DNA of 41,651 nucleotides from Alphaproteobacteria bacterium (GTDB lineage Bacteria > Pseudomonadota > Alphaproteobacteria > UBA11222), in contig JAHHGO010000002.1 in NCBI GenBank assembly GCA_023252275.1, positions 1 to 41,651 on the forward strand, in the 5' to 3' direction. Positions within the stretch are counted from its first letter, which is position 1, and each line of letters begins with the position of its first letter. The translations under genes and the position numbers were made by a program. The notes beneath the pieces are model-generated. The model had not been told where the DNA came from. It made no database searches and worked only from the letters and a program-made list of their open reading frames with translations. Shown here one piece after another: positions 14,848 through 41,651 of this stretch.

Positions 14848-15045
14848 ATAAGCGCCAAATGATGCGATAAAAAACTGCTCGCGCGGCTTTACCCTCAACT
14901 CACCGGACTAAATAGTCAAAGCGCCCCCCCTGCGCAAGTCATATGGTTGTGAACGGTATTATTCTATCCCGCGCGGAACATTGACCCCGCGCAATGATGG
15001 TGTAGGATGCAGCCAAGCAATATCAAACGAATCTCAGGGGAAATC

Positions 15046-15879: not shown

Positions 15880-16967
15880 TGTCGCACAACACATTCGGGC
15901 ATCTGTTTCGCGTCACCACTTGGGGGGAAAGCCACGGCCCTGCGCTGGGCTGTGTGGTGGATGGCGCGCCGCCGCGTCTGGCGCTCAGCGAAGACGATAT
16001 TCAGGCCTGGCTGGACAAGCGCCGCCCCGGCCAGTCACGCTTCACCACCCAGCGCCGCGAAGCCGATCTGGTGAAAATCCTGTCCGGCACCTTCGAGGGC
16101 AAAACCACCGGCACGCCGGTCAGCCTGCTGATCGAAAATACCGATCAGCGTTCCAAAGATTATGGCGATGTGATGGACAAATTCCGTCCCGGCCATGCCG
16201 ATTACACCTATCTGGCGAAATATGGCGTGCGCGATTATCGCGGCGGCGGACGGCAATCGGCGCGCGAAACCGCCGCGCGCGTGGCGGCGGGCGCCATTGC
16301 GCGCATTATCCTCGGAAAGAAAATCAAAATTCGCGGCGCGCTGGTGCAGATGGGGCCGCATAAAATTGACCGCGCCCGCTGGAACTGGAATGAGACGGAA
16401 AAAAATCCGTTCTGGTGCCCGGACGCAAAATCGGCGGCGCAATGGGAGACATATCTGGATGGGGTGCGCAAGGCGGGATCATCCTGCGGCGCGGTGATAG
16501 AAGTGCGGGCATCGGGCGTTCCCGTTGGGCTGGGCGCGCCAATTTACGGCAAGCTGGACGCCGATCTGGCGCAGGCGCTGATGAGCATCAATGCCGTCAA
16601 GGGCGTCGAGATCGGCGATGGCTTTGCGGCGGCCAGCCTGACCGGCGAGGAAAATGCCGATGAAATGCGCGTGGCCGCCAAAGGCAATATGGGCAAAAAG
16701 ACGCCGGAATTTCTGGCCAATCATGCGGGCGGCATATTGGGCGGCATTTCCACCGGACAGGACATTGTGGCGCGCTTTGCGGTGAAGCCCACCAGTTCGA
16801 TCCTCAGTCCACGGAATACCGTCACCACCGGCGGCAAAAATACCAGCATCATTACCAAGGGCCGCCATGACCCCTGTGTCGGCATTCGCGCCGTGCCGGT
16901 GGGCGAGGCGATGATGGCCTGCGTTCTGGCCGACCATCTGCTGCGGCACCGCGCGCAAAATGGCTGA
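15879..16967 (+). CDS. aroC: Chorismate synthase
   Basis: Contains [27 protein letters not shown] and [13 protein letters not shown]. The start overlaps the fabI stop (TAATG). Confidence 0.95.
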
Positions 16968-17463
16968 GCATCCGGAAAACATACCGGCGGGGTTTGAACC
17001 ACTGCCTGGAAAGACCACCTTTATTCATCACGCGGGGCCTGTCTATTGGGGCGAAAGCGAAGGGCAATATGTGCTGGGCTTTCGCGTTGCGCCGCATCAC
17101 GCCAATCCCGCCGGAATGTGCAATGGCGGCATGCTGATGACGGTCATGGATCTGGGGCTGATCGTCGGCATTATCGCCCGGCAGCCGGATGGAAATTTTT
17201 CACCCACCATGAGCCTGTCGGTGGATTTTATCGCGGCGGCGCAGCTGGGCGAATGGGTGGAAAGCCGCGTCGATTTTGTGCATCTGACCAAGCGCCGCGG
17301 CTATGCCAGCGGGCGGCTGGTTGGCCCCAAAGGCGTGATCATGCGGGCCAATGGCGCGTTCAGCTTTCCGCCAGCGGGCGACCCGCGCTTTAATGTCGAT
17401 GGTCCAACCCTGCGTGATGTGATCGTGGCGCGCGAGAAACAAAAACGCCAGCAGGCGGAATAA
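16960..17463 (+). CDS. PaaI-family (hotdog-fold) thioesterase
   Basis: A 167-aa protein with the hotdog motif [19 protein letters not shown]. It overlaps the aroC 3' end by 8 nt (ATGGCTGA). Confidence 0.7.
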
Positions 17464-17482
17464 TCATACACCTTGGCGCGGA

Positions 17483-18106
17483 TCAGAAATCCGTTTTGGA
17501 AAGCGCGCGCACACGCCGGTCATCGGGCCAGGGAACCGCGTCACCCGGCGCAATATCCGCGCCGCTGATCAGCGTGCCGGTGCGCGGCGTATCCAGCGTA
17601 ACCGTGCCCGCCGCATTGGAAACTTCGACCTTGCCGGTCAGCAACAACACGCCATAGACGCCGTCAATCGGCCCGGCCCAGAAATCCGTACCACGCACGC
17701 CAATGGTCGCGACCGGCGTTTTGATCGTCAGTGCGCCAGGATGCCCTTTGGCGCTGCTGACAAAACGCAATGCGCCCGTCACCAGATTGATGGTGGCCGA
17801 ACCATCCCCGTCATACACAAATTCATCGAGCCGGACCTCGGCATTTTCGCCCATCACCAGCGCGGTGGCGTCGCTGAGGCGCAATTCGGCGCGCGCCTGC
17901 GCCCCGGTATGTAAAATTTCATTGCGGAACACCGGATTGCCCACGTCCAGCGGCCGGGCGGGATCCGCCGGTGAGGGCCGTGCCGTAACGTCATTTTTAA
18001 CCCGTTCGACCTTGCCGGCGTGCCTCGCGTCCTGCGCCAGCGCCGGGCCAGACAGGCAGAGGCCCGCCATCAAGGCTGCGGCGCGAAGTGTGTGCATATT
18101 CAACAT
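17483..18106 (-). CDS. Secreted FecR-domain protein
   Basis: It has a signal peptide (AALMAGLCLSGPALAQ) and FecR-domain-like beta strands including IKTPVATIGVRGTDFW. Confidence 0.6.
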   Translation of the reverse strand: MLNMHTLRAAALMAGLCLSGPALAQDARHAGKVERVKNDVTARPSPADPARPLDVGNPVFRNEILHTGAQARAELRLSDATALVMGENAEVRLDEFVYDGDGSATINLVTGALRFVSSAKGHPGALTIKTPVATIGVRGTDFWAGPIDGVYGVLLLTGKVEVSNAAGTVTLDTPRTGTLISGADIAPGDAVPWPDDRRVRALSKTDF

Positions 18107-18172
18107 TTGCCCATTTCCTGTTCATGCTATGCTTTGGCGATGATTCACCCACAAAATGAATAGCCAGCGCAA

Positions 18173-19387
18173 ATGAAATTAGCGTGCAGGGCGTTTACCC
18201 TTGCTATAATGGCCCTGAGCAGCATCGCATCCGTTCAGGCGGGCGAATTTACCGATGCCCTGACCGGGGGCGGCGCCTGGCTGGATCTGCGCTACCGGAC
18301 TGAGCTGGCGGATCAGGAAAATCTGCCGCGTAACGCCGCCGCACATAGCTTGCGCAGCCGTGCGGGCTATGCCACCGGTCTGTATCGCGGCCTGTCGGCG
18401 CTGGCCGAATATGAATATATATTTCATCTGGGTACGGAGCGGTTCAATAATGGCAATGAACGCGGATCGCCCTATCCGCTGGTGGCCGATCCGGACACGG
18501 CCGAATTAAATCAGGCCGCGCTGCGCTATGAAGGGCCGCTGCAAACCACCTTCATTCTCGGCCGCCAGCGCATCGTGCATGACAATGAACGCTTTATCGG
18601 CGATGCGGGCTTTCGCCAGAACATGCAGACCTTTGACGCGCTGTCGCTGCTCAACCGCGCTATGCCCAAAACCGAATTGCGCTATGAATATATCAGCCGC
18701 GCCAACCGCATTTTCGGGCGTGAATCCGCCTTTGGCGATTGGGAAATGGACGGTCACGTCATAAGCGCCGCCTGGCAGGGATGGCGGGCGGGAAAACTGA
18801 CAGGCTATGGCTATCTGTTCGATATTGATGACCGGCAGGATCTGTCGAGCCAGACTTACGGAGTGCGCTGGGATGCCCGCGCCATTGACCTGCATGGCAT
18901 CAGCTTCAAATATAGCGCCGAGGCGGCCTGGCAATCAGACTATGGCAATCATCGCGGCAATTATGATGCGGGCTATTATCTGTTGCAGCCCAGCTTCTCA
19001 AAAGGGCCGCTCAGCCTGACTATTGGCTATGAAGTGCTTGGCAGCGGCAATAATACCGGCTTTTCTACACCGCTGGCGACATTGCACAAATTTCAGGGTT
19101 TTACCGATAACTTCAACGCCACTCCGCCCGGCGGCATACGCGATCTGATGGCTGATCTGAATTATCAGCGGACGGATATTGCGCCATTTGACATGCTCCG
19201 CGTCTGGGGCGGCGCGCATCATTTTTCCGCCCAGCAGGGCGGCCATGATTACGGACAGGAATATTACGCGGCGGCGGCAATTCTGTATCGCGGGGTTTAC
19301 AGCGAAATAAAAGCCGCCGGCTATGAAGCGGACGGGTTCGGCCCGGATACGGAGAAGCTGTGGATGACTGTGGCGAAGGATTTTTAG
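18173..19387 (+). CDS. Outer-membrane beta-barrel protein (alginate-export / AlgE-like porin family)
   Basis: It has a signal peptide (SSIASVQA), alternating amphipathic strands (LDLRYRTE.., LRSRAGY..), and a C-terminal aromatic residue (..TVAKDF). Confidence 0.55.
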   Translation: MKLACRAFTLAIMALSSIASVQAGEFTDALTGGGAWLDLRYRTELADQENLPRNAAAHSLRSRAGYATGLYRGLSALAEYEYIFHLGTERFNNGNERGSPYPLVADPDTAELNQAALRYEGPLQTTFILGRQRIVHDNERFIGDAGFRQNMQTFDALSLLNRAMPKTELRYEYISRANRIFGRESAFGDWEMDGHVISAAWQGWRAGKLTGYGYLFDIDDRQDLSSQTYGVRWDARAIDLHGISFKYSAEAAWQSDYGNHRGNYDAGYYLLQPSFSKGPLSLTIGYEVLGSGNNTGFSTPLATLHKFQGFTDNFNATPPGGIRDLMADLNYQRTDIAPFDMLRVWGGAHHFSAQQGGHDYGQEYYAAAAILYRGVYSEIKAAGYEADGFGPDTEKLWMTVAKDF

Positions 19388-19426
19388 GCGCTGCGCAATC
19401 AGGCCGGTATTATCGAGGGTGAGATT

Positions 19427-19645
19427 ATGGCTGATACAAACATTCCTGTTCACACTGGCGGCTGCCAGTGCGGCGCGGTGCGCTATGCGCTGTATGCGGA
19501 GCCAGCAAACCCATTAATTTGCCACTGCCGTTCATGCCAGAAGGCATTCGGAGCCTCTTTTGGGGCCCTGGCTACCATTGGCCATAATCATTTTAGCTGG
19601 TCGCGCGGAATTTCATGCCAATTTGGAAAACTATCAGCATCCTGA
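19427..19645 (+). pseudogene. GFA (glutathione-dependent formaldehyde-activating / CENP-V-like) family gene remnant
   Basis: Only the first Cys cluster is present (GGCQCGAVRY...CHCRSCQKAFG), and the ORF ends at 72 aa. The second CxxC block is absent. A different frame continues as FHANLENYQHPDHDMPEWPVKKG* up to about 19681. Confidence 0.4.
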
Positions 19646-19785
19646 TCACGATATGCCTGAATGGCCGGTCAAAAAGGGCTGAGACGGCTAATTTTCAGCC
19701 GCTCAAGTGCGATTCCGCTTGAGCCGCCTTCGCACCAGGGGTATAAGGCCCCCTCTCAACAGGCATATGCAGGGCTTACAGCAAC

Positions 19786-20052
19786 ATGGCGAATAACAGG
19801 CAGGCAAAAAAGCGTATCCGGCAGACAGCCACGCGAACCGTGGTTAATGGGGCCCGCCGCAGCCGCGTCCGCAGCTTTGTCCGCCAAGTCGAAGACGCCA
19901 TTTCAAAGGGCGATAGCGCAGCGGCGCAGGCGGCTTTGAAAGTGGTCGAGCCTGAGCTGATGCGGGGCGCGCAAAAAGGCGCCCTGAAGAAACGCGCCGC
20001 TTCGCGCAAAGTGTCCCGCCTGACTATCCGGGTGAACGCTTTAGGGGCCTAG
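19786..20052 (+). CDS. rpsT: 30S ribosomal protein S20
   Basis: [36 protein letters not shown]... is a textbook S20 sequence. Confidence 0.95.
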
Positions 20053-20689
20053 CGCAGCAATAGCCATCCGGCATGAGGCGGGGCCTTATGGTGGATGAAT
20101 GGGTTTGTTCTAAAAAAAACCCAGAAAAATCAATGCTTCTCAGGCCCTAATCCTTGTTACATCTCATATGGCCGCAGCCTTGATGCCTGGCTTGCGCCAA
20201 CTGCTTTATTGAGCGGCTGATCCATTAATTCATCAAATCATCACATGACACGATTTCGCCTGTAAGCGCGCAACCAGCCTGGATTGGGCTCCACAAGGGG
20301 CAGAATGTATCAAAATTGCAACATGGGATTTAGGGGTTTAGGGTTTGTCTATACAGGTCTGCAGGTTTCCCGCATGCCCGCATTTTTCCGCCTGCAAAAT
20401 GACGGCGTCAAGGTCAAGACAATTATCTGCTTAAAACAAAAATTTTATTTCCCAATACCTATTGCACAAGGAAAATGACCTAGATACACTGTGAACGGTT
20501 GGTTAGCATCGCGTACAACAACAGATAAAATAATAGAAAATTTGAATAAATGTAACAGATATACTTATCTGATTGGGCAATTATTGACTATTATTTGGGC
20601 AGATCAAAGCATTAAATAAAGATTTACTTTTATTCGATATTTTTTTGCCGTTTTACTTTGTTATTAACCTCAATCCCGTTCAGGAAGAG
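20053..20689. other. About 640-bp AT-rich non-coding region upstream of the rhodanese gene and dnaA (candidate dnaA control region; oriC status unproven)
   Basis: There is no convincing ORF here. The region is markedly more AT-rich than its flanks, especially 20400-20660. It contains short repeats (GGGATTTA GGGGTTTA GGGTTTG at 20325-20346; CCCGCAT x2 at 20369-20383). Confidence 0.5.
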
Positions 20690-21166
20690 ATGACCGCATC
20701 CGAACCAAATCATCCGTTGCCTGAAGAAAATTCCTCTCTGGGATATGCTGGTGATCTTGATCCCATTCAGGCTTGGGAACTGTTGTCAAAAGAGCGCGAT
20801 TCTGTGCTGATTGATGTACGCACCAGCGCCGAATGGAATTTTATCGGCCTTTCCGATCTTTCATCCGTAGGCAAACAACCTGTCACAATTGAATGGCAGA
20901 GCCTGCCCGGCATGGCGCGCAATCCGGATTTTGACAAACAGGTTAAACAGGCTGTGGCGCAGTGCAATGCCGGCGCTGATAGCGCACTGATTTTTATCTG
21001 CCGATCCGGGGCGCGTTCACGCGATGCGGCCATCAGCCTTGCGCAACAGGGCTTCAGGCGCTGCTACAATCTGTCCGGCGGGTTCGAAGGGGACCTTGAT
21101 GCGGAACGGCATCGGGGTAACAAAAACGGGTGGAAATTCAAGGGGCTACCCTGGAAACAGGGATAA
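20690..21166 (+). CDS. Rhodanese-like domain protein
   Basis: Contains LIDVRTSAEWNFIG and the active-site loop FICRSGARS. ATG 20690 is preceded by CAGGAAGAG. Confidence 0.8.
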   Translation: MTASEPNHPLPEENSSLGYAGDLDPIQAWELLSKERDSVLIDVRTSAEWNFIGLSDLSSVGKQPVTIEWQSLPGMARNPDFDKQVKQAVAQCNAGADSALIFICRSGARSRDAAISLAQQGFRRCYNLSGGFEGDLDAERHRGNKNGWKFKGLPWKQG

Positions 21167-21199
21167 ATACCATTACGGCAAGCACTGTGGGGGCGCTAA

Positions 21200-22753
21200 A
21201 TGACTAACATTAATCCTGACACGGATGGGCCGGAGGCTACGCCATCTGCCCCCCGGATTGCCGCTTCAGGAACCATTTCAGACAGGACGCCAGTGGAAAA
21301 TTCAACAGAGATTTCGTCCCATGAAGCCGCACAACAATGGCAGCAGGTGGTGGCCATTCTGCGCCGGGATCTGGGCGAGGCCACCTATCAGAACTGGTTG
21401 TGCATTATCGGATGCGACCGCATTGAGGGGGGGTGTGCGCTACTTACAGCGCCCAGCCGTTTCAAACGCGACTGGATCACGGCGCATCTGGGCGATCAAA
21501 TGCTGAAGGCCTGGGGCGCCGTTAACAGCCAGGTGCTGCGGCTGGATATTCTCGCCCGGGAAACCAGTCCGGCGGCGGGCGCCGGAAATGTTCCGCTTGG
21601 CGGCGCGAATAGCGGCAATTCAGCCGCCGTTAGCTCGGGCTTCGCCCAGGCGCAGCCGGCGGCGATCATCCGGTCCGAAATCCAGGCTGACCCCCGCAAC
21701 GGGCAATATGGCCGTCTGGGCGCGCCCCTCGACCCGCGCTTTACCTTTGAAGATTTCGTGGTTGGTAAATCCAACGAATTTGCCAGCGCCGCCGCGCGCC
21801 GCGTGGCCGAAAGCGACACGCCCCCCTTTAACCCGCTGTTTCTGCATGGCGGCGTCGGGCTGGGCAAAACCCATTTGATGCACGCCATTGCGCACGCCAT
21901 CCGCGCCCGGCGTCCGGAACGCACCGTATTGTATCTTTCGGCCGAAAAATTCATGTACCAGTTCATCAAGGCGCTGCGCGACAAGGACACCATGCCCTTC
22001 AAGGAGGCGCTGCGTTCCGTGGACGTGCTGATGGTGGACGATGTGCAGTTTATCGGCGGCAAGGGCTCCACGCAGGAAGAGTTTTTCCATACTTTCAACG
22101 CCCTGATCGATCATCAGAAACAGCTGATCATTTCAGCGGACCGTTCGCCATCAGATCTGGATGGCATTGAGGAACGCATCCGTTCGCGGCTGGGCTGGGG
22201 TCTGGTTGCGGATATTCACCCGACGGATTATGAGCTGCGCCTTGGTATTTTACAGGGCAAGGCCGAAATCGCCCGCCGCCAGATACCGGATATTGAAATT
22301 GCCGAGCCAGTGCTGGAATTTCTGGCCCATCGCATCAATTCCAATGTGCGCGATGTCGAAGGCGCGCTGACCCGGGTGATTGCGTTTGCAACCCTGGTGC
22401 GGCGTCCGATCACCGTGGATATGGCGCGCGAGGTGTTGCAGGACCTGTTGCGGGCCAGCGAACGGCGCATCACGATCGATGAAATTCAGCGCAAGGCCGC
22501 CGAATATTTCAATATCCGCCTTGCCGATATGCTGTCGGCCCGGCGCGCACGCGCCGTCGCCCGGCCCCGCCAGGTCGCCATGTATCTGGCCAAGCAATTG
22601 ACCGCCCGCTCGCTGCCGGAAATAGGCCGCAAATTTGGCGGACGGGATCATACCACCGTCATTCACGCGGTGCGGCGCATCGAACAGCTTCGGGAAAGCG
22701 ACAATGCGCTGAACGAGGATGTCGAGAAATTGCAGAGGCTGTTACAGGGCTAG
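21200..22753 (+). CDS. dnaA: Chromosomal replication initiator protein DnaA
   Basis: Contains the AAA+ Walker [15 protein letters not shown], the box VII/sensor regions, and the C-terminal DNA-binding helix [16 protein letters not shown]. Confidence 0.97.
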
Positions 22754-22773
22754 TTTTTCAGCCGCATTTACAC

Positions 22774-22805
22774 GGATTCCGGATGCGATTTTACTGCCGG
22801 AATCC
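22774..22805. promoter_or_regulatory. Inverted repeat carrying two GANTC sites in the dnaA-dnaN spacer
   Basis: GGATTCCGG-N14-CCGGAATCC forms perfect 9-bp arms. GATTC lies at 22775-22779 and GAATC at 22800-22804, with a third GATTC at 22823-22827. Confidence 0.35.
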
Positions 22806-22909
22806 TCACGCTCTGCTATACTGATTCGTAGCTTATACGCCCCCTCCTCCAACCTATCCGGATCGCGGGCGGTCCCCCGCAGGAGGCTACGAACAGGAAC
22901 GGTCTGAGA

Positions 22910-24049
22910 ATGAAATTCACCATCGAAAGAACAGTTCTTCTGCGCTCGCTGGGTCATGTGCAAAGCATTGTGGAACGGCGCACAACTATTCCAATCCTGT
23001 CCAATGTTTTGTTACAGGCGCGTGACGGAAAACTGGATCTGACCGCAACCGATCTGGACATTGCGGTGCGGGAATCGGCTGAAGCAAATGTGACGCAAGC
23101 CGGGGCCACAACCGCGCCCGCCCATACCCTGCATGACATTGTGCGCAAACTGCCGGAAGGCGCGCAGGTTGAAATTTCACTCGATGCGGATAATGGCCGG
23201 CTATTGTTAAAGGCCGGCCGCTCGGAATTTCACCTGTCCTGCCTGCCCGCCGCCGACTTTCCCGCAATGGATGCGGAAAGCACCGGCAAGACAGCCGATG
23301 CCGCATCGCAATTTGTCATTGCCGCGGCGGATTTGAAGCGGCTGATCGACAAGACGCGGTTTGCGATCTCCACCGAAGAAACCAGATATTATCTGAATGG
23401 CATCTATCTGCATGTGGTCAAGACCGGTGGCGTGACCATGCTGCGCGCCGTCGCTACGGATGGGCACCGGCTGGCGCGGGTGGAACTGCCGGCGCCCAGC
23501 GGCGCGGATGCAATGCCGGGCATTATCCTGCCGCGCAAGGCGGTGCTGGAACTGCACAAGCTGATCGACGGCGTAACCGGCGATGTGGCGGTTAACGTGA
23601 CCCCGGCCAAGATACGCTTTGCCTTTGATCATGTGACCCTGAGCACCAAACTGATCGACGGGACATTTCCTGATTATACCCGCGTCATTCCCACGACGAA
23701 TGACAAGCTGATGGAAGTTAATAATCTGCTGTTGCGTCAGGCGGTGGATCGGGTGTCGACCATATCGTCGGAAAAGTCGCGCGCTGTAAAAGTCAATCTG
23801 GGTAAAAACCAGATGACGGTATCGGTGAAAAATCCCGATCAGGGAAGCGCCAGCGAAGAACTGGCCGTCAGCTATACGGCGACGCCGATCGAGGTGGGTT
23901 TCAATGCGCGCTATCTGCTGGATGTGGCCGCGCAGATCGACGGCGACAATGCGATATTTGAATTTTTTGATGCGCATTCGCCCGCGCTGATCCGCGACAG
24001 CGGCGATGCGTCGGCGCAATATGTGCTCATGCCCATGCGGGTGGCGTGA
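22910..24049 (+). CDS. dnaN: DNA polymerase III beta sliding clamp
   Basis: A 379-aa protein beginning MKFTIERTVLLRSLGHVQSIVERRTTIPILSNVLL and ending ..YVLMPMRV. It sits in the canonical position after dnaA. Confidence 0.95.
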   Translation: MKFTIERTVLLRSLGHVQSIVERRTTIPILSNVLLQARDGKLDLTATDLDIAVRESAEANVTQAGATTAPAHTLHDIVRKLPEGAQVEISLDADNGRLLLKAGRSEFHLSCLPAADFPAMDAESTGKTADAASQFVIAAADLKRLIDKTRFAISTEETRYYLNGIYLHVVKTGGVTMLRAVATDGHRLARVELPAPSGADAMPGIILPRKAVLELHKLIDGVTGDVAVNVTPAKIRFAFDHVTLSTKLIDGTFPDYTRVIPTTNDKLMEVNNLLLRQAVDRVSTISSEKSRAVKVNLGKNQMTVSVKNPDQGSASEELAVSYTATPIEVGFNARYLLDVAAQIDGDNAIFEFFDAHSPALIRDSGDASAQYVLMPMRVA

Positions 24050-24083
24050 TACGCCATCCCGCAGCCCCCCCGCAATGGGTTTT

Positions 24084-24113
24084 GCACGCAATGGCCCATA
24101 TGGGTTCGCGTGC
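24084..24113. repeat. Hairpin in the dnaN-recF spacer
   Basis: GCACGC ... GCGTGC arms enclose the perfect palindrome CCCATATGGG. CGCAATGG occurs twice (24071 and 24087). Confidence 0.35.
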
Positions 24114-24228
24114 GCTATTGAAGTTTCGGCTGCCATGCTGAACAGCGCCGTTTAAGGAATTTGTCAGGGTGTTAGCGCAATCACCAATATCAGAGGCGCC
24201 CGGCCTTGCAACGGCCATCGCGGTGCGT

Positions 24229-24611
24229 ATGCTGAAAGTCACGAATTTCCGCTGTTACGCTCAGGCCAGCCTGAATCTGGATGGCCGTCCGGTGGTGCTG
24301 ACGGGCGAGAATGGCGCGGGCAAAACCAATTTGCTGGAAGCGCTGTCCTTTTTGTCGCCGGGGCGCGGCCTGCGCTGGGCGCGGCTTTCGGAAGTCACCC
24401 GGATTGGAGCGGACACAAATTGCTGGGCCGTGGCGGCCAGCCTGAACGCTTCGCATTGCAGCGGCGCGCCGGCGCGCATCAGCACCGGATTAGTCAGCGC
24501 ATCCGATACGGGCCATGCGCTGGAACGCCGCACCGTGCGCATTGATGGGGAAACCCAATCCTCCAGCGCGGTGCTTTCACAATTTTTGTCGGTGATCTGG
24601 CTGACGCCGGA
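24229..24611 (+). pseudogene. recF: recF, 5' fragment only (about 128 codons)
   Basis: MLKVTNFRCY...LTGENGAGKTNLLEALSFLSPGRGLR...RIDGE...LSVIWLTP matches the RecF N-terminal region. The resemblance stops at WLTP, and the frame then reads antisense ffh and stops at 24651. A start at 24223 or 24169 is also possible. Confidence 0.8.
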
Positions 24612-25022
24612 TAGCGACGCCATCAATACTTTTTTGCGATCCCGGGTCTGAAACCGCAGCGCCAGCTTGGCCGTTGTGGTGGTTTTGCCCGAACCCTGCA
24701 GGCCGACCATCAGCACCGGCACCGGCGAAGGCGCGTTGAGATCAATCCCCTGCGATGTGGAGCCCAGCATTTCCACCAGATTGTCATGCACAATCTTGAT
24801 GACCATCTGGCCGGGGGTGATGGATTTGATTACTTCCTGGCCAACGGCGCGGGTGCGCACCCTGGCGATGAAATCACGCGCCACCGGCAGGGCCACATCG
24901 GCTTCCAGAAGCGCCCGGCGTACTTCGCGCAGGGCTGCATCCACGTCCGCTTCGCTTAACGCGGCCTGCTTGCGCAGGGCGTCGAATATAGTGCTCAGCC
25001 GGTCTGAAAGCGTTTCAAACAT
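24612..25022 (-). pseudogene. ffh: ffh (signal recognition particle protein), 5' fragment only (137 codons)
   Basis: MFETLSDRLSTIFDALR...LREVRRALLEADVALPVARDFI...VLMVGLQGSGKTTTTAKLA...KKVLMASL is the Ffh N domain plus the start of the G domain. After ..MASL the 253-aa track ORF is just antisense recF. Confidence 0.85.
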
Positions 25023-25198
25023 AAGGGGTTAGCCCAATTACAAAGCAAAATTGCGCCAGTGGGCGAAACCTCGCTGACTGGCGGTACGGCGTTCTTGACC
25101 CGAAATGTGGTGGATCGGCTGGGAAACTAGGCGCGCTTTGGAGTAGTGTCAAGCAATTGTAGGGATTCGCAGCCTGAATAAAGTAAGGAATATCCGCC

Positions 25199-25687
25199 AT
25201 GTCATATCCCGGTTTAGCCGCCCTGTCCGCCGCCGCCGCCAGATTATTGATTGCGAACGGACAGACGGTGGCGGTTGCCGAATCTTCATGCGGCGGGCTG
25301 ATTTCCGCGGCGCTGGTGGCGGTTCCCGGCGCTTCGGCCTTCTATATAGGCGGCGGCATTGTCTATACCGCGCAGGGCGGCAAGGTGTTGCTGCCGGGGC
25401 GTCCGAAAGGCATGAAGTCCGCGACTACGGATTTTGCGCTGTTTGAAGCGCGCTCTATCCGCACAAGAATGGGCGCCGACTGGGGCATTGGTGAAACCGG
25501 GGCCAGCGGCCCAAGCGGCAATCCCTATGGCAATCCGCCGGGCCATGCCTGTGTCGCGGTCAGTGGCCCCGTTGAACGCGCGCTTGTGCTGTCCACGGGA
25601 AGCGCCGATCGCGAGGCCAATATGTGGGCCTTCGCAAAAGCAGCCCTTGATCTGCTGGCGGAGCTAGCGTCAAAAGGCGGTAGATAG
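25199..25687 (+). CDS. CinA-family protein (C-terminal PncC-type nicotinamide-nucleotide amidohydrolase domain only)
   Basis: LLIANGQTVAVAESSCGGLISAALVAVPGASAFYIGGGIVYT and ..GIGETGASGP.. are typical of the CinA C-terminal domain. Confidence 0.85.
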   Translation: MSYPGLAALSAAAARLLIANGQTVAVAESSCGGLISAALVAVPGASAFYIGGGIVYTAQGGKVLLPGRPKGMKSATTDFALFEARSIRTRMGADWGIGETGASGPSGNPYGNPPGHACVAVSGPVERALVLSTGSADREANMWAFAKAALDLLAELASKGGR

Positions 25688-25711
25688 AATCTTGCTGATT
25701 CGCATGAAATG

Positions 25712-25776
25712 CCTAGGGCAATCTGCATTAAGTTCGAGCCATGAGGCTCGAACTTAATGCGGAAAGCTGCTCTAGG
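25712..25776. repeat. Long palindromic hairpin element downstream of cinA
   Basis: A perfect 16-bp stem, GCATTAAGTTCGAGCC / GGCTCGAACTTAATGC (25725-25740 / 25745-25760), has a 4-nt loop. A second helix, CCTAGGGCA / TGCTCTAGG (8 of 9 bp), extends it across an asymmetric bulge. No U-tract follows. Confidence 0.6.
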
Positions 25777-25790
25777 ACAAGATTAGTGTA

Positions 25791-25806
25791 TTAATCAATT
25801 ATTAAC
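25791..25806. promoter_or_regulatory. CtrA-box-like motif TTAA-N7-TTAAC upstream of the secretin gene
   Basis: TTAATCAATTATTAAC matches the TTAA-N7-TTAAC consensus exactly. It lies about 100 nt upstream of ATG 25904, in an AT-rich spacer. Confidence 0.35.
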
Positions 25807-25903
25807 CTTAATAATTAACTATTTCAGCCAATAAGCGGTTTGTCAGACATAGCGTCATTTACCCATTATTGCTGGACAAGGGCGTCATGAGAGCAGGCAT
25901 TGC

Positions 25904-27853
25904 ATGAAATTGGCCTTAAGTTTTAGCCATCCCGATAGTGGAAAGGTCCGCACTCTTTATTGCCGCGCCGCATTGACAGCCCTGCTGTTGCTGGCCGGGT
26001 GCAGCAACCTGTCGCAACCTGATTTCGACAAACAGGACCGCACCGCCGGAATGACCCGGGATGATTATCGCGATGCGCTGAAGCCGCGCGCGCCGGAAAA
26101 TGACGCTTCCATCCCGCCGCCGCCAATTCCCCAGGCGGAACCCCTTATCCCGATGCCGAATCTGGCGCTGCCGGCCAATGCCAGGCTGGTGACGATTTCG
26201 GTCAATGAAGATGTGCCGCTGCGCGATGTGCTGAGCGAACTTGCGCAACAGGCCAATGTCGGGCTGGAGCTGGATCCGCGCATTACCGGCAGCCTTATTT
26301 TCTCGGTGCGCCAGCGCCCCTTTGAGGAGGTGGTTGACCGCATCGCGGACATGGCTGATCTGCGCTACGACCTTGAAGGCAATGTGCTGCGCATTGAGCG
26401 CGATCTGCCCTATTTGCAGAATTATCGCATCGATTATCTGAATGTCGTGCGCGACACCAGCAGCTCCGTTTCCACCACTGTCGATGTGGTGGGCGGTGAA
26501 TCGGTGGGCGGCGAAGGCGGCGGCCAGGGCAACAGTTCCGCAAGCGAGGTCAAAAGCGAATCCAAAAATAATTTCTGGGAGGAGCTTGAATCAAATATCG
26601 GTATGCTGATGAATCGTAGTTCGCAGCGGGAAAGCCTGCTGTCGGGGTCTGGCGCGGCCGGCGCCGAAGCCGATATTTTCGCTGATGTTCCCGCCCCTCA
26701 GTCCGCCGTGCCCAATCCCCTGCCAATAGTCCCGGCGGTGGCGCAACCGGAATCGGGGGCTGCTGCATCCGGCGGCGCGCCCGCGCCGGCAGCCGTTGCC
26801 GCAGTTGTGCAGGCGGCGGGCGGCGGCGCATCTCCTTTCCCCGCAACTGCCGCTGCAGTCCAGGCGGAGCAACCCGCCGACGCTGAAAGCCCCAATCAGC
26901 GTCCTTACAGCATCAACCGGGTTGCCGGCCTGCTCAATGTCTATGGCAGCCAGCGCCAGCACAAAATGATCGAAACCTATCTGCGCAAGCTTCGCCGCGC
27001 CATAGCGGGCCAGGTGCTGATCGAGGCGAAAGTGCTGGAAGTGCAGCTATCGGATAATTTTTCAAGCGGCATCAACTGGGCGGGCGTTCTGGGCGCGGCG
27101 ACCGGCGCTGCGCGGTTTGGCGATACCGTGGCCGTGCCGCAGACCCGGCCGTTTAATGATCTGAACACGGCGACGTCGGGCGTGGTGACCCTGGCGCTTG
27201 ATCGCAACGATCTTGATGCGGTCGCAAGCCTGGCGCAGCAATTCGGTACGGTGCGCACACTTTCCAGCCCGCGCCTCACAGTGCAGCACAATCAAAGCGC
27301 CGTGTTGAAGGTTGTTGAGAACCGGGTGTTTTTCGAACTGGATTTTGAACGCACCCTGCTTGACAATGGCGATGAACGCACGACGGTTGACAGCAATATC
27401 CGCACTGTTCCCGAAGGCGTCATCATCACCGTGCAGCCGTCCATTCACAGTGAGACGGATGAAATCGGCATGACGCTGCGCCCGACCATCACGCGCATTA
27501 CCGGCACCATCAATGATCCGGGCGTGTCGATTGCGTCCAACAATACGGTGCAATCGCCGGTGCCGATTATCGCCGTGCAGGAAATTGACAGTATGGTGAC
27601 GATGCGTTCCGGCCGCGTGCTGGTTATGGGTGGTTTGATGCAGGATACCAGCACAACCGGCGAAACCGGATTGCCCGGCGTCTCGGGTCTGCCAATTGTC
27701 GGCAATCTGTTCAAGGCGCGCAATGACATCAACAATCAGACCGAGCTGGTCATATTTCTGCGCGCCACCATCATAGAGGATAGCGGCGCCACCGCCGCCG
27801 ATATTGACCTTTACAAAACCTTCGGGCGCGACCGCCGTCCATTACCCTTCTAG
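25904..27853 (+). CDS. Secretin-family outer-membrane channel, lipoprotein type (MshL/PilQ/GspD-like)
   Basis: It has a lipobox (LLLLAGCS), an N-terminal secretin-N-like domain (DVLSELAQQANVGLELDP), a long Gly/Ala/Pro-rich linker, and a C-terminal secretin core (VRTLSSPRLTVQHNQSAVLKV, VPIIAVQEIDSMVTMRSGRVLVMGGL, LPGVSGLPIVGNLF, TELVIFLRATII). Confidence 0.85.
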   Translation: MKLALSFSHPDSGKVRTLYCRAALTALLLLAGCSNLSQPDFDKQDRTAGMTRDDYRDALKPRAPENDASIPPPPIPQAEPLIPMPNLALPANARLVTISVNEDVPLRDVLSELAQQANVGLELDPRITGSLIFSVRQRPFEEVVDRIADMADLRYDLEGNVLRIERDLPYLQNYRIDYLNVVRDTSSSVSTTVDVVGGESVGGEGGGQGNSSASEVKSESKNNFWEELESNIGMLMNRSSQRESLLSGSGAAGAEADIFADVPAPQSAVPNPLPIVPAVAQPESGAAASGGAPAPAAVAAVVQAAGGGASPFPATAAAVQAEQPADAESPNQRPYSINRVAGLLNVYGSQRQHKMIETYLRKLRRAIAGQVLIEAKVLEVQLSDNFSSGINWAGVLGAATGAARFGDTVAVPQTRPFNDLNTATSGVVTLALDRNDLDAVASLAQQFGTVRTLSSPRLTVQHNQSAVLKVVENRVFFELDFERTLLDNGDERTTVDSNIRTVPEGVIITVQPSIHSETDEIGMTLRPTITRITGTINDPGVSIASNNTVQSPVPIIAVQEIDSMVTMRSGRVLVMGGLMQDTSTTGETGLPGVSGLPIVGNLFKARNDINNQTELVIFLRATIIEDSGATAADIDLYKTFGRDRRPLPF

Positions 27854-27857
27854 CCGG

Positions 27858-28646
27858 ATGCGCGCGGGCCAGCTCACGCTCAGTACGGCATTGCTGCGCT
27901 ATATGTTTGCCTCCGCCGTGCGCGACCGGCTGTTTCTGGCGTTACCTGTGATGCTGGCGGTTGCGGCCGCGCTGGTTATTTTTCTCAGCGGCAGCGCAAT
28001 TATTGAACAGCGCGAAATGGCGGCGGCGCTGTTCGGCGCAACGAGCCGTGTACTGATTATTTTCGGCATGGTGATATTTGTCTGTTTTCATATCCGTCAG
28101 GCCATGACGGGCGGCGAGATAGCGCTGATTTTATCGCGGCCGGTTTCGCGCGGCGCATTCGTCCTGAGCTATTGCTTCAGTATGGTGTGTGCGGGGTTTA
28201 TCTGTGTGGCGGCGGGCCTTGTGATGGTGTGGCTGGGCGCGCGTCCGCCGCTTGGCGGTTTGCTGATCTGGGGGCTAACGCTCGCACTCGAAACCATGCT
28301 GATGATCCAGATGGCTATATTTTTCGGGCTGATTCTGAATAATGCCGTCAGCAGCGTTATGGCCTGTCTGGGATTTTACGTTCTGGCGCGGATGAGCGGC
28401 CTGCTTGGCGCGCTGGCGGTCAAGGCCGATGCGGGCGGAGGGATGCCGGATGTTTTTCTGGGTTATGGTTTCAGGCTTATCTCGCTCGTCATTCCAAGGC
28501 TGGATTTCTTTACCCGCAGCGAATGGCTTGTATATGGCGTGAATGGCGGCGAGCCGGGCCTGGGCTGGCCGCTGCTTCAGGCGCTGGTGTTTGCGCCACT
28601 GATCCTGGCCGCCACCATGATCGATTTCAGCCGCAAGCGGTTATGA
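27858..28646 (+). CDS. Polytopic membrane protein with an ABC-2/NosY-like permease signature; no ATPase partner nearby
   Basis: It has about 6 predicted TM segments. The motif GGEIALILSRPVSRGAFVLSY resembles the E-x-GT-xE-LLxxPVSR motif of ABC-2 permeases (compare 13388-14122). It starts 4 nt after the secretin stop. Confidence 0.55.
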   Translation: MRAGQLTLSTALLRYMFASAVRDRLFLALPVMLAVAAALVIFLSGSAIIEQREMAAALFGATSRVLIIFGMVIFVCFHIRQAMTGGEIALILSRPVSRGAFVLSYCFSMVCAGFICVAAGLVMVWLGARPPLGGLLIWGLTLALETMLMIQMAIFFGLILNNAVSSVMACLGFYVLARMSGLLGALAVKADAGGGMPDVFLGYGFRLISLVIPRLDFFTRSEWLVYGVNGGEPGLGWPLLQALVFAPLILAATMIDFSRKRL

Positions 28647-28647
28647 T

Positions 28648-29361
28648 ATGGGCGGCGAAGGTAAACTCAGACATGTGCCGCCGCCCTTTATTGCGGCTTT
28701 GATCGTGGCGCTGGCCGCGCAAATTCTGTTCTGGTCGGAGGCCCAGAATATCCGCATCCCCTGGAGCGGTGTGGAACTGGCTCCCACCCCCATCGCCGCC
28801 CGGGCCACGGCGCTGGGCGATACGCAATTTTATTACCGGACGGCGGGGCTGGGGCTGCAAAATATGGGGGATTGGGCCGGCGAAATGACCCCATTGGCGC
28901 AATATGATTATGGACGGCTTAGAGGCTGGTTCCGTCTGTTGTCGCAGATGGACCCTGAAAGCCAGTATGCGCCCTCATTGGCCGCCTATTATTACGGGTT
29001 TAGCCCTGATCCGGATGATGTGCGGCAGGTCATTGGTTATTTGCAGGAAATTGCCGCCGACAAGCCACGCGCGCATTGGCGCTGGCTGGCTTATTCCGTC
29101 TATCTGGCGCGCTACCGGGTGAAAGATCCGCAGCTGGGGCTGGCGCTTGCCAGACAATTGGCCGCACTGCCGGTCGCGGACATGCCGGTCTGGACGCGTC
29201 AGCTTCCGGCCTTTGTGCTGGCCGATGCGGGGGAAAAAGAAGCCGCCAAGGATATTCTGGAGGCAATATTGGCGACAACCCCTGATCTGCATCCCGCAGA
29301 ACAGTTCTTTATTCGTAACTATATTGCAACACGCCTGGGTTTTTCATCGAAAACGAGGTGA
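28648..29361 (+). CDS. Membrane-anchored protein of unknown function with a helical-repeat-like soluble domain
   Basis: One N-terminal TM (PPPFIAALIVALAAQILFW) is followed by an Ala/Leu/Tyr/Trp-rich, helical-looking sequence. It starts 1 nt after the previous stop. I recognise no family. Confidence 0.5.
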   Translation: MGGEGKLRHVPPPFIAALIVALAAQILFWSEAQNIRIPWSGVELAPTPIAARATALGDTQFYYRTAGLGLQNMGDWAGEMTPLAQYDYGRLRGWFRLLSQMDPESQYAPSLAAYYYGFSPDPDDVRQVIGYLQEIAADKPRAHWRWLAYSVYLARYRVKDPQLGLALARQLAALPVADMPVWTRQLPAFVLADAGEKEAAKDILEAILATTPDLHPAEQFFIRNYIATRLGFSSKTR

Positions 29362-29380
29362 ATATTTATTTTAGACAAAT

Positions 29381-29396
29381 TTAAGTATCTTTTAAC
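29381..29396. promoter_or_regulatory. CtrA-box-like motif TTAA-N7-TTAAC upstream of the prepilin gene
   Basis: TTAAGTATCTTTTAAC matches the consensus exactly. An extended -10-like TGTGATAAT lies at 29408-29416. Confidence 0.35.
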
Positions 29397-29422
29397 CAGA
29401 TACATGTTGTGATAATTTGTCA

Positions 29423-29440
29423 CTAGAGGGGTCCCTCTAG
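29423..29440. promoter_or_regulatory. Palindromic operator-like site abutting a -35 element
   Basis: CTAGAGGG-GT-CCCTCTAG forms 8-bp perfect arms and ends 2 nt before TTGACA. Confidence 0.4.
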
Positions 29441-29442
29441 GA

Positions 29443-29471
29443 TTGACAGTAAAAAACTCTAGCAATATATG
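29443..29471 (+). promoter_or_regulatory. Sigma70-like promoter candidate for the prepilin gene
   Basis: TTGACA (29443-29448), a 17-nt spacer, then TATATG (29466-29471). It lies about 85 nt upstream of ATG 29557. Confidence 0.35.
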
Positions 29472-29556
29472 CCTAAACTTATCTGAATTAGACGCAGAAA
29501 CGGTTTGGTAACTCCGCCATGCGATACTGCCGCAGCTTAAGAGAGAATGGAAATCA

Positions 29557-30342
29557 ATGATGACCTATAAAGCTGGTTTTAGGGGACTGACCAAAAACAC
29601 CCCAATAATTATTCAGGGTTCTGACAGCGGCCGGCAATCCGGTTTTACGCTTGTCGAGCTTTCGATCGTGCTGGTGATTATCGGATTGATTATCGGCGGT
29701 ATTCTTAAAGGCCAGGAATTGATCGGCAACGCCCAGGTCAAAAATGTGGTCTCGCAGGCGCAGTCCTATCAGGCGGCAACCGCTGCCTTCAGGGATAAGT
29801 ATGGCGCTCTGCCAGGGGATTTGGTCGGCGCAGACAATATAATCCCCAATTGTACGGCGGCGCCATGCCTGCCTGCGGCTGCGGGTAACGGAAACGGCAT
29901 TGTAGGCGCAAATGCCAACGCCACCTATTCAAATAACGTAAGCGCGGCCGCGGAAAATGTTGCGTTCTGGCAGCAGCTTGCCGCAGCCCGCTTCATCGGT
30001 AATATAGACACGGATGGCACAAGCGCGGCTATTTTTGGCGGCCGCTTTCCCAGCGCTGCAACCGGGGGCGGTTTTCAAGTTCTTTTCCAGCCGTTAACGG
30101 GCCGCCATGTGTTGCGGTTGACCGGGACACCGGGCGTGCCGGCCCCCGCCACAGGGGCCCTGCGGCCGGATCAGGCGTTGCAGATTGACCGTGTGCTTGA
30201 CGATGGGCGGCCTGGCACCGGTTCGGTGTTTACCAACACTACCTTATCCGCTGCCGCTACCTGCTTTTCAGGCGTGGTGACAGCTCCCTATCTGGCGGCC
30301 AGCGGTAATAGCACCTGCAATCTGGTTATCGACCTCAACTAG
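29557..30342 (+). CDS. Prepilin-type N-terminal cleavage/methylation domain protein (pilin or pseudopilin) with an unusually long leader
   Basis: ..SDSGRQSG/FTLVELSIVLVIIGLIIGGILKG is the class III signal motif. It is preceded by about 28 residues with no alternative in-frame start closer to the cleavage site. Confidence 0.8.
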   Translation: MMTYKAGFRGLTKNTPIIIQGSDSGRQSGFTLVELSIVLVIIGLIIGGILKGQELIGNAQVKNVVSQAQSYQAATAAFRDKYGALPGDLVGADNIIPNCTAAPCLPAAAGNGNGIVGANANATYSNNVSAAAENVAFWQQLAAARFIGNIDTDGTSAAIFGGRFPSAATGGGFQVLFQPLTGRHVLRLTGTPGVPAPATGALRPDQALQIDRVLDDGRPGTGSVFTNTTLSAAATCFSGVVTAPYLAASGNSTCNLVIDLN

Positions 30343-30374
30343 CCGGGCCAGTCTTAGGCCTTGAAATGAATGGG

Positions 30375-30400
30375 AAGGCCGGGGATTTCCCGGCCTTTTT
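30375..30400 (+). terminator. Rho-independent terminator after the prepilin gene
   Basis: AAGGCCGGG-GATTT-CCCGGCCTT forms a 9-bp GC-rich stem followed by TTT. It starts 33 nt after the stop. Confidence 0.7.
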
Positions 30401-30418
30401 GTCCTGGGGGATGCTAAA

Positions 30419-30685
30419 ATGCACCTGCCTGACGGGTGGTGGAAAAAACAGCGCTCGCGCGGCTTTACCCTGATAGAGCTGGCGATTGTTCTCGCCATAC
30501 TGGGGCTGTTGCTGGGCGGCGGCAGCATGCTGCTGCAACCCCTTATACCAGACGGCATCGAGTTCCTGATGGCCGAGATCGGCAGCGCCTCGACCAAAGC
30601 GCGCGGAGCCGTGCCTTTGGATCTTAACGACAGCTATGGCCAATTCAGCAGGCTGCGCCAGAATGGGCACGGCGTCATCCGCTGA
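30419..30685 (+). CDS. Very short prepilin-like protein (88 aa; about 73 aa mature)
   Basis: MHLPDGWWKKQRSRG/FTLIELAIVLAILGLLLGG is a class III signal motif. GGGGGA lies upstream of ATG 30419. Confidence 0.6.
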   Translation: MHLPDGWWKKQRSRGFTLIELAIVLAILGLLLGGGSMLLQPLIPDGIEFLMAEIGSASTKARGAVPLDLNDSYGQFSRLRQNGHGVIR

Positions 30686-30733
30686 GCAGCGTCATAACCG
30701 GATTGGCAACAGCATGGGGATGGAAAATCTCGC

Positions 30734-31528
30734 ATGAATGAAGCACCGCCCCTGGATCACGCCATTGTTGCGTTGGCGCGGCGTGAACGGGCGGTGGTGA
30801 CCGCCGGGCTGGCAGGCGCGATACTGCTTGCCTGGGCATATATTTTATCCGGCGCCGGCATGGACATGAACAGAATGGACATGGATATGCCAGGAATGGA
30901 AACCGCAACTTCCGGTTTCGATTATTTTCTGATGATGTTTCCCATGTGGATGATCATGATGGCGGCGATGATGCTGCCCGGCGCCGCGCCAATGATTCTG
31001 CTGTTTACCGCGATCAGCCAAAAACAGCGCGAGCGTGGCGCGCCAATTGCGTCCACCGCGCTCTTCACGCTTGGTTATCTGCTCGTATGGAGCCTCTTCA
31101 GCGTTGGCGCGACTCTGCTGCAATGGGCGCTTCGCGAGGCGGAGGTTATACAGCACGCCTTGAGCATCGACAGTCCGGCTATGAGCGCGGCGCTTATGCT
31201 GGGCGCCGGGCTATGGCAAATCACACCGGTCAAGCGCGCCTGCCTGGAATATTGCCGCTCGCCAGTTCATTATATTTCCGCGCACTGGCGCAAAGGCCGG
31301 ATGGGCGCGCTGCGCATGGGCCTTCAGCATGGCGCATTTTGCCTGGGTTGCTGCTGGTTTTTGATGGGACTGTTATTCGTGGGCGGTATTATGAATCTAT
31401 ACTGGATTATCGGCATCGCAGCCTATGTGCTGTTCGAAAAACTTGTCCCCAATGGTCAGGCGCTGGCGCGCATCAGCGGGGTGATGCTTATCGGCGCCGG
31501 CGTTTGGCTGGGCTTATATAATATTTGA
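30734..31528 (+). CDS. DUF2182-like predicted metal-binding integral membrane protein
   Basis: It is Met-rich (GMDMNRMDMDMPGME, FLMMFPMWMIMMAAMMLPGAAPM) with a Cys pair in FCLGCCWFLM. The family call is from recall. Confidence 0.65.
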   Translation: MNEAPPLDHAIVALARRERAVVTAGLAGAILLAWAYILSGAGMDMNRMDMDMPGMETATSGFDYFLMMFPMWMIMMAAMMLPGAAPMILLFTAISQKQRERGAPIASTALFTLGYLLVWSLFSVGATLLQWALREAEVIQHALSIDSPAMSAALMLGAGLWQITPVKRACLEYCRSPVHYISAHWRKGRMGALRMGLQHGAFCLGCCWFLMGLLFVGGIMNLYWIIGIAAYVLFEKLVPNGQALARISGVMLIGAGVWLGLYNI

Positions 31529-32554
31529 CCGGCCAGGCCCGCTGACCCCCGCTTGTTCAAACGTCGCCATGCCCGCATGGGTGACGGCGGCGGCGCGGAC
31601 AATGGAAATCGCCAGCGCGGCGCCAGATCCCTCGCCCAGCCGCATGCCCAGATCGAGCAGGGGTTTTTTGCCAATTCTTTCCAGCAAACGGCCATGCGCG
31701 GCTTCCGCCGACACGTGCGCCGCCAGGCAATGATCCAGCGCGCCCGGCTGCAACTGATGCAGCACGGCCGCCGCCGCCCCGACAACAAAGCCATCCAGCA
31801 GCACCGGGATGCGCTGCACGCGCGCCGCGATGATGGCGCCCGCCATTGCGGCAATTTCCCGCCCGCCGACACGGCGTAATATTTCCAGCGGGTCGGACAA
31901 CTGCCCCTTGTGAAATTGCATCGCCGCCCGGACCGCCGCCGCCTTGCGCGCCAGCCCTGCGTCATCGACGCCGGTCCCCTTGCCCACCCAGTCTTCCGCC
32001 TCGCCCCCGAACAGGGCGCAGCACACCGCCGCGGCCACTGTGGTGTTGGCGATGCCCATTTCACCGATGCACAGCAGATCGCCGCCCGCCGCCACGGCCT
32101 CCATGCCAAAGGCGATGGTGGCTGCGCAATCCGCCTCGCTCATGGCTTCGGCTTCGCAAATATCCGGCGTGGGTATGTCCAGCGCCAGATCGAATATTTT
32201 CAGGCCCGCGCCGGACACTTTGCACAACTGGTTGATGGCCGCCCCGCCGGCTGCAAAATTTTCCACCATCTGCTGCGTCACCGAAGCGGGAAACGCCGAA
32301 ACGCCACGCTGCGCCACGCCGTGATTGGCCGCGAAAATTGCCACCTGCGGCTGCAACACCATGGGCGGATGCCGCCCCTGCCAGGCGGCAAGCCAGCCGG
32401 AAATTTCCTCCAGCCGGCCCAGCGAACCCGCCGGTTTGGTCAGTTCCGCCTCACGCGCCTGCGCCTTTGCGGCCGCCGCCATATCCGGCCCCGGTAACTG
32501 GCGTACAAGATTGCGGATATCATCAAATGGCAAGGCGCTGGCGGAGAGGGACAT
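31514..32554 (-). CDS. cobT: Nicotinate-nucleotide--dimethylbenzimidazole phosphoribosyltransferase
   Basis: Contains LTKPAGSLGRLEE, FAANHGV, IGEMGIANTT and LDLGMRLGEGSGAA. Confidence 0.9.
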   Translation of the reverse strand: MSLSASALPFDDIRNLVRQLPGPDMAAAAKAQAREAELTKPAGSLGRLEEISGWLAAWQGRHPPMVLQPQVAIFAANHGVAQRGVSAFPASVTQQMVENFAAGGAAINQLCKVSGAGLKIFDLALDIPTPDICEAEAMSEADCAATIAFGMEAVAAGGDLLCIGEMGIANTTVAAAVCCALFGGEAEDWVGKGTGVDDAGLARKAAAVRAAMQFHKGQLSDPLEILRRVGGREIAAMAGAIIAARVQRIPVLLDGFVVGAAAAVLHQLQPGALDHCLAAHVSAEAAHGRLLERIGKKPLLDLGMRLGEGSGAALAISIVRAAAVTHAGMATFEQAGVSGPGRSNII

Positions 32555-32626
32555 TTTGTGCTTCCGTATAAGGCTGTTGCGGGTCTAACTCGCATGACTA
32601 TTAGCACAAAGAAAGCGTTTATTAAG

Positions 32627-33412: not shown

Positions 33413-33479
33413 AATACACTCATATGGTCTTATAGCTGCGGCGATACAGGACAGTTTCCATACCCCCCAGGATAGCGCA

Positions 33480-35930: not shown

Positions 35931-35960
35931 TCCGCATCAATTCATTTCAGGAGCATTTCC

Positions 35961-37089: not shown

Positions 37090-37096
37090 GCCCCGC

Positions 37097-41483
<4,387 letters not shown>

Positions 41484-41489
41484 GGATGA

Positions 41490-41651
41490 TCAGGCCTTCC
41501 GCGCCCAGATGGCGTAATCCTGCGGCCCGTAGAAAAGCTGATTAAGCCGGCTTGCGACATCATCGGCGCCCTGCAGTTTCAGCGTGTCATCCGCCTCATG
41601 CAAGTAAATCACTTCTGAATCCACAAAACCACGCTGCCCCACCATGAAGCG
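41490..41651 (-). CDS. C-terminal end of an upstream gene in the same operon (function unknown; runs off the window end)
   Basis: The minus-strand frame is open from the window end to the TGA at 41490-41492 (..LNQLFYGPQDYAIWARKA*). It is tightly coupled to the glycosyltransferase start. Confidence 0.35.
   Translation of the reverse strand, partial: RFMVGQRGFVDSEVIYLHEADDTLKLQGADDVASRLNQLFYGPQDYAIWARKA

Follow-up and report, generated by a model that had tools for sequence, protein, structure and literature searches.

A recF-ffh junction in an alphaproteobacterial contig is almost certainly an assembly misjoin

In the stretch of DNA analysed here (41,651 nt, referred to throughout as the window), the 5' part of recF on the plus strand runs tail to tail into the 5' part of ffh on the minus strand. 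The ffh gene is essential in E. coli, as are gyrB, rpsP, trmD and rplS. Is such a junction carried by the organism, or was it made on the way from the cells to the contig? An earlier note on this DNA offered both an artefact of the assembly and a true rearrangement as answers. From the comparisons given below, the recF-ffh junction is almost certainly an assembly misjoin and not biology. The features that bear on the question are collected in Table 1.

Table 1. Features at the recF-ffh junction, the two blocks of the window and the near-identical contigs L001 to L005
Feature	Window coordinates	Strand	Details	Basis
recF 5' fragment	24169-24612	+	codons 1-148, Walker A region	TIGR00611; match to the RecF of L001
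Read-through tail of the recF ORF	24613-24651	+	antisense to ffh; 12 codons and stop	ORF coordinates and breakpoint
ffh 5' fragment	24613-25022	-	137 codons; N domain and P-loop of the G domain	TIGR00959
Read-through tail of the ffh ORF	24261-24611	-	antisense to recF; 116 codons and stop	ORF coordinates
Native 5' leader of ffh	25046-25093	-	Rfam 'ffh sRNA' motif, full model 1-52	RF01793
Junction	24613		single A common to both parent sequences	base-by-base comparison with L001-L005
Left block (native locus A)	1-24613		acnA, ABC-transporter cluster, aroC, rpsT, rhodanese gene, dnaA, dnaN, recF 5' part	
Right block (native locus B)	24613-41651		ffh 5' part, cinA, secretin, pilin-like genes, cobT/cobS, PBP1A; also prfB, gmd and the gene of a 1109-aa glycosyltransferase	
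Contig L001, 1-10209 (SRR13723395)	14405-24613		99.5% identity over 10,209 nt	blastn
Contig L002 (SRR14271333)	22567-24613		99.95% identity	blastn
Contig L003 (SRR24775929)	21865-24613		99.8% identity	blastn
Contig L004, 3738-4882 (SRR13723395)	24613-25757		99.7% identity	blastn
Contig L005 (ERZ25039601)	24613-27805		99.5% identity	blastn

Two genes cut in mid-frame

On the left of the junction, the recF ORF (24169-24651, plus strand, 160 aa) is matched by the NCBIfam RecF model TIGR00611 at positions 2-126 of 339, with 74.6 bits against a cut-off of 172, and by the Pfam families SMC_N and AAA_23 at residues 19-137. It has neither the score above the cut-off nor the end-to-end profile match of a RecF equivalog. 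The N-terminal Walker A segment of RecF is present nevertheless, and so is the gene order dnaA-dnaN-recF, with dnaA (21200-22753) and dnaN (22910-24049) lying directly upstream. An alternative ATG start at 24229 would give a fragment of 128 codons.

On the right, the ffh ORF (24261-25022, minus strand, 253 aa) overlaps the recF ORF convergently. It is aligned with the Ffh model TIGR00959 at positions 1-136 of 428, with a score of 164.7 bits where the cut-off is 473.2. In Pfam, the SRP54_N domain is complete, the SRP54 GTPase domain is represented by positions 4-36 of 196 only, and the SRP_SPB family (M domain) gave no match in this ORF. An Ffh/SRP54 equivalog, by comparison, has complete N, G and M domains and a score above the cut-off. 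Codons 1-137 span 25022-24612, the last base of codon 137 lying at 24612; Pfam and NCBIfam agree with the claim in the earlier note that ffh is cut after 137 codons, without the full G and M domains.

Upstream of the cut, ffh stands in its native 5' context. The match to RF01793 reaches 44.7 bits (gathering score 35), and the presence of this leader shows that the promoter-proximal side of the gene is intact. The motif, which is conserved, sits between ffh and a divergent cinA-like gene, and the ffh/cinA arrangement is identical in contigs L004 and L005 and in the MAGs L007-L009.

Past the junction, each frame reads on through the antisense strand of the other gene, and neither of the two tails is real coding sequence. 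When the 253-aa ORF was used in a homology search, other database proteins covered at most 53-55% of it (the Ffh part), the window's own singleton excepted. The ORF coordinates and the mapped breakpoint bear out the view that the 160-aa and 253-aa ORFs are read-through artefacts. Each gene is cut after about a third of its length. The remaining two thirds of recF and ffh were sought in every frame of the whole window, by tblastn with the intact proteins and by blastn with the missing DNA, and were not found. Since neither gene continues in another frame, a simple frameshift or other-frame continuation is rejected, and the earlier statement that similarity stops at the breakpoint stands.

Apart from recF and ffh, no gene pair in the window is cut. 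The 27 other large ORFs tested give no sign of truncation: 23 are covered by Pfam families essentially end to end, and four have no Pfam family. The contig is therefore not generally scrambled, and the possibility of several junctions was rejected.

Intact recF and ffh in near-identical contigs and in relatives

Six independent contigs were retrieved by exact-protein look-ups with the DnaN and CinA of the window; they are Logan assemblies of SRA runs and one ENA assembly. Identity to the window is 99.5-99.95% in five independent public contigs (L001-L005) that come from four samples, and L006 is also collinear with the right block (blastn). The DnaN carried by L001-L003 is identical to that of the window, as is the CinA carried by L004 and L005.

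These contigs show what lies beyond the breakpoint. On the recF side, recF is complete (399 aa) and followed by gyrB in L001 and L002, and L003 holds 322 nt more of recF before the contig ends. The window fragment corresponds to residues 1-148 of the intact RecF of L001, its last codons (...VIWLTPD) ending at 24612. On the ffh side, L004 contains a complete 480-aa ffh followed by rpsP-rimM-trmD-rplS, and L005 has 116 nt more of ffh; the window fragment is 100% identical to residues 1-137 of the Ffh of L004. The intact proteins score 228.3 bits over positions 2-339 of TIGR00611 (RecF of L001) and 582.4 bits over positions 1-428 of TIGR00959 (Ffh of L004). Both intact loci are found in one sample, SRR13723395, from which L001 and L004 were derived.

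A similar picture was obtained with relatives. RecF is full-length in the congeners L087-L092 (74-82% amino-acid identity) and Ffh in the MAGs L007-L009 (90-93%), which makes all nine congeneric or near-congeneric loci checked full-length. Even at 73-81% identity, the similarity of the relatives to the window stops or starts at 24611-24613: the synteny of the left block with L087-L092 ends there, and that of the right block with MAG L007 extends to about 30548. It can be seen that, first, both flanks of the window are collinear with independent assemblies up to one common breakpoint and, secondly, that independent assemblies cross this breakpoint into different, biologically coherent sequence, as is expected of a misjoin. 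Near-identical strains hold whole recF-gyrB and ffh-rpsP-rimM-trmD-rplS loci.

These findings bear on a first alternative, namely a real deletion or inversion from mid-recF to mid-ffh in the sequenced cell or in a dominant subpopulation, for example in a dying or defective lineage or in a single amplified cell. A blunt junction of the kind described below, with 1 nt in common, would be compatible with illegitimate recombination. However, either event would destroy ffh, and a deletion would also remove gyrB, rpsP, trmD and rplS, which are essential in model bacteria. The missing parts are absent from the window, the genes are intact in all near-identical strains and all relatives examined, and a rare variant would not be expected to become the consensus of an assembly. 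A genome with this as its only copy would be without a functional Ffh, essential in model bacteria, so that a fixed deletion or inversion is implausible; we regard this alternative as extremely improbable. Of the real structures, a duplication junction would alone be viable, given intact copies elsewhere.

The join and its possible origin

In blastn comparisons with the independent contigs, the join was mapped to 24612|24613 or 24613|24614, because base 24613 is the last that the window has in common with the left-hand contigs and also the first that it has in common with the right-hand contigs. At the join the window has CCGGAT-A-GCGACG, against CCGGAT-A-TGGACC at the same site in the recF contigs and CATCG-A-GCGACG in the ffh contigs. 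There are no inserted bases or N at the join, and the count of N in the whole window is zero. Codon 137 of ffh (24614-24612) is CTA in the window versus CTC in the intact gene, which indicates that its third base is derived from recF and that Leu137 is kept by coincidence. A cut of both genes at one common breakpoint, as the earlier note had proposed, is thus confirmed with one shared base; the single sharp join stands, but its true position (24613) is one or two bases away from the 24611/24612 originally given.

The neighbourhood of the join was examined for homology between the two parent loci. No shared k-mer of 14 or more was found within 150 nt of both parental breakpoints, none of 18 or more was found between the two whole loci, and no direct or inverted repeats beyond chance matches flank the join. 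Nor were the signs of a mobile element (terminal inverted repeats, target-site duplication, att-like repeat, element gene) observed at the junction. The join is blunt and essentially homology-free. As the two loci have no repeat in common, it is not a repeat-induced graph error; a repeat-mediated graph misjoin and IS/att recombination were both rejected for lack of k-mers of 14 or more near the breakpoints and of flanking repeats. The Walker A coding sequences of RecF and Ffh form a 40-nt inverted match of 73% (24289-24328 versus 24680-24719) that contains the exact 12-mer CGGGCAAAACCA. The two arms of this match lie away from the breakpoint, the left one 297 nt from the join and the right one about 70 nt from it, and the match is a by-product of the misjoin.

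The two halves of the window are alike in composition. GC is 0.584 in 1-24613 and 0.585 in 24614-41651, the tetranucleotide correlation between the halves is r = 0.983 versus 0.958-0.976 between sub-halves, and both halves have the same best-matching relatives. Equal GC, tetranucleotide signature and relatives indicate that both come from the same organism or population, and a chimera between organisms was rejected.

The junction was encountered in this contig alone. An exact match to the junction 33-mer was found in none of 185,579 GTDB species-representative genomes and in none of 241 million metagenome records, although the source record is apparently masked in both collections, which makes its absence there weaker, supporting evidence only. 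In the homology search with the 253-aa ORF, the window's own protein appeared as a one-member cluster on one contig of 41,651 bp, and exact look-ups of both chimeric ORFs gave no record elsewhere. (Exact look-ups of the two genes at the ends of the window gave no match either.) The junction was thus reproduced in no other data set searched, with the source record seemingly masked, and its uniqueness to this contig is supported by the absence of the 33-mer elsewhere and by the singleton ORF. The length of that contig equals that of the window, which means that the join is internal to one whole deposited contig. Contig concatenation as an effect of the scan pipeline, one of the options raised earlier, is excluded by this single 41,651-bp contig in the protein collection and by the lack of N in the window.

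Could the junction, then, be that of a real tandem or segmental duplication running from mid-ffh to mid-recF? On a chromosome with the order ffh(-)-cinA-...-dnaA-dnaN-recF(+), doubling of the segment would create a junction of the recF 5' part with the ffh 5' part, and a cell bearing it would be viable, since ffh would stay intact on the left side of the duplication and recF on the right. The geometry fits the join, both halves are from the same organism, a blunt 1-nt junction fits illegitimate recombination, and intact copies are clearly present in the population. Known bacterial tandem-duplication junctions are likewise novel, blunt or low-homology joins of a segment end to a segment start, with partial gene copies at the junction and persisting intact copies. 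In contrast to these, the window is unbranched through the join, and its junction occurs in no other sample searched, being absent from the five near-identical contigs and from the collections. An assembler given both the junction and the intact genes would be expected to meet a branch at 24613 and normally to break there, instead of running on through 24.6 kb and 17 kb. Moreover, the flanks of recF and ffh in congeners share nothing within 10 kb, from which it follows that the duplicated unit would have to be longer than the 41.6-kb contig. A further point against a duplication is that large ones are unstable and seldom become dominant in natural populations. It therefore seems scarcely probable that a tandem or segmental duplication produced the junction. 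Taken more broadly, a real junction of any such kind, that is, a strain-specific large duplication or another rearrangement by illegitimate recombination from ffh to recF over the dnaA region, is very unlikely. Should it be real, its interest would be modest, as a large duplication in the region of dnaA and no new kind of system.

Another possibility is that the linkage of the two blocks is genuine, recF and ffh being convergent, and that the sequence between them (the recF 3' part, gyrB, ..., rplS-trmD-rimM-rpsP and the ffh 3' part) was dropped when the N run of a scaffold gap was removed or a gap was wrongly closed. The relative orientation of the blocks is compatible with convergent neighbours. 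In addition, one distant relative (L071, 9939-21270) has acnA, which belongs to the left block of the window, some 8 kb downstream from ffh and in the matching relative orientation, and in a distant alphaproteobacterial relative (L131, 10001-18462) recF and ffh are 6 kb apart on one strand. However, the arrangements in distant relatives are mutually inconsistent in orientation; ccmB, for instance, is found near ffh in L051, L055 and L080 in differing orientations. Such relatives show a loose, variable proximity between genes of the window's two halves. In close relatives, by contrast, the 10 kb downstream of recF and the 10 kb downstream of ffh have nothing in common (blastn, tblastx). If the two genes were convergent neighbours, more than 20 kb would separate them, a gap beyond ordinary paired-end or mate-pair scaffolding, and the window contains no N. 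Convergent near neighbours with a small collapsed gap are not supported, as the congener flanks do not overlap. Downstream of gyrB, L091/L092 carry a PBP1A-like gene that is no more than a distantly related paralog of the one in the window. We consider it very improbable, as well, that a gapless scaffold accounts for the join.

With one sharp breakpoint, whole genes in near-identical strains, a junction seen once and halves of the same composition, the contig is, with high probability, an intra-genome chimeric join made during assembly. Two non-adjacent places of one genome or population, the dnaA-dnaN-recF-gyrB locus and the rplS-trmD-rimM-rpsP-ffh / cinA-secretin locus of an uncultured freshwater-type alphaproteobacterium, would have been joined bluntly. 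In the organism, recF and ffh would then be whole, and the halves of the window would not be neighbours. We infer that the origin of the join lies in silico or in the library, not in the cell, and the step responsible can be proposed only on the same footing. The likeliest cause would be a chimeric read or fragment along which the assembler crossed a strain-variation break or a local gap in coverage; the other possibility is mis-scaffolding that left no gap.

In several respects the junction resembles the relocation or inversion misassemblies of the QUAST/metaQUAST class: the flanks align to non-adjacent references, the breakpoint is sharp, genes are cut in mid-frame, and the junction is present in one assembly only. 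In de Bruijn graphs, misjoins typically occur where a repeat of k-1 bases or more is shared, whereas the two parents here have 1 nt in common at the join and nowhere share a k-mer of 18 or more. Two points speak against an assembly chimera. A blunt 1-nt join also results from illegitimate or NHEJ-type recombination in vivo, and de Bruijn graph assemblers rarely make overlap-free joins unaided, so that a chimeric template or some post-processing step has to be assumed.

Chimeras produced by phi29 during MDA were considered as a particular source, as the earlier note had included inverted MDA-type chimeras among its options. They reportedly join mostly to a nearby inverted segment, with microhomology that is said to range from a few to about 20 nt. 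The tail-to-tail meeting of two gene fragments is similar in the window. In contrast, the microhomology here is 1 nt, and the partners are not nearby inverted segments but different loci, more than 10 kb apart in relatives. Of the earlier options, therefore, an assembly chimera is favoured, while an inverted MDA-type chimera is unsupported.

The dnaA block and the cinA/secretin block should be treated as unlinked, in line with the caution about their linkage in the earlier note. When the contig is split at 24613, two coherent loci are restored, and the 160-aa and 253-aa ORFs are to be discarded. Uncorrected, the contig would lead to the wrong conclusions that functional RecF and SRP54 are lacking, that two spurious proteins exist, and that dnaA is linked to the cinA/secretin/pilin genes. 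The importance of the case is mainly one of quality control: two convergent truncated genes at one breakpoint, near-identical contigs that cross it and the absence of a repeat make up a flag for misjoins that can be raised without reads.

Other observations on the two blocks

In the left block, an AT-rich spacer of about 600 nt (20050-20650) lies between rpsT and the rhodanese gene, just upstream of dnaA; the GC of 20001-21000 is 0.449, versus about 0.58 elsewhere. No DnaA box TTATCCACA (at most one mismatch) was found inside the spacer, the count of such boxes over the window is not clearly above chance, and the spacer gave no DNA-level alignment with congeners. An origin-like or regulatory region is one possibility, a small insertion another.

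In the right block, a cluster beside ffh (25199-30342) comprises the cinA-like gene, a secretin gene (PF00263), two ORFs of 280 aa and 237 aa with no Pfam family, and the gene of a 261-aa protein whose N-terminus bears a methylation (pilin-type) motif. MAG L007 (4430-10425) has these genes in the same order. The cluster probably represents a type IV pilus or MSHA-like secretion module of small size. In L005 (1408-3302, equivalent to window 25904-27805), the secretin is called as two pieces of 274 aa and 364 aa, and the alignment with the window, where the 649-aa secretin is intact, contains two gaps. The split probably reflects indel errors of that assembly.

Further along, prfB contains, within 35962-36055, a classical programmed +1 frameshift site, AGGAGG followed by CAT CTT TGA C (about 36018-36034), which accounts for the start of the 344-aa prfB ORF at position 6 of the PCRF profile. 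Near the right end, the 1109-aa protein (38154-41483, minus strand), for which an exact look-up placed no identical product on record in the collection, contains at least two stretches of glycosyltransferase group 1 (GT4), including the 'GT4-conflict' Pfam family, and its gene adjoins that of a GDP-mannose 4,6-dehydratase.
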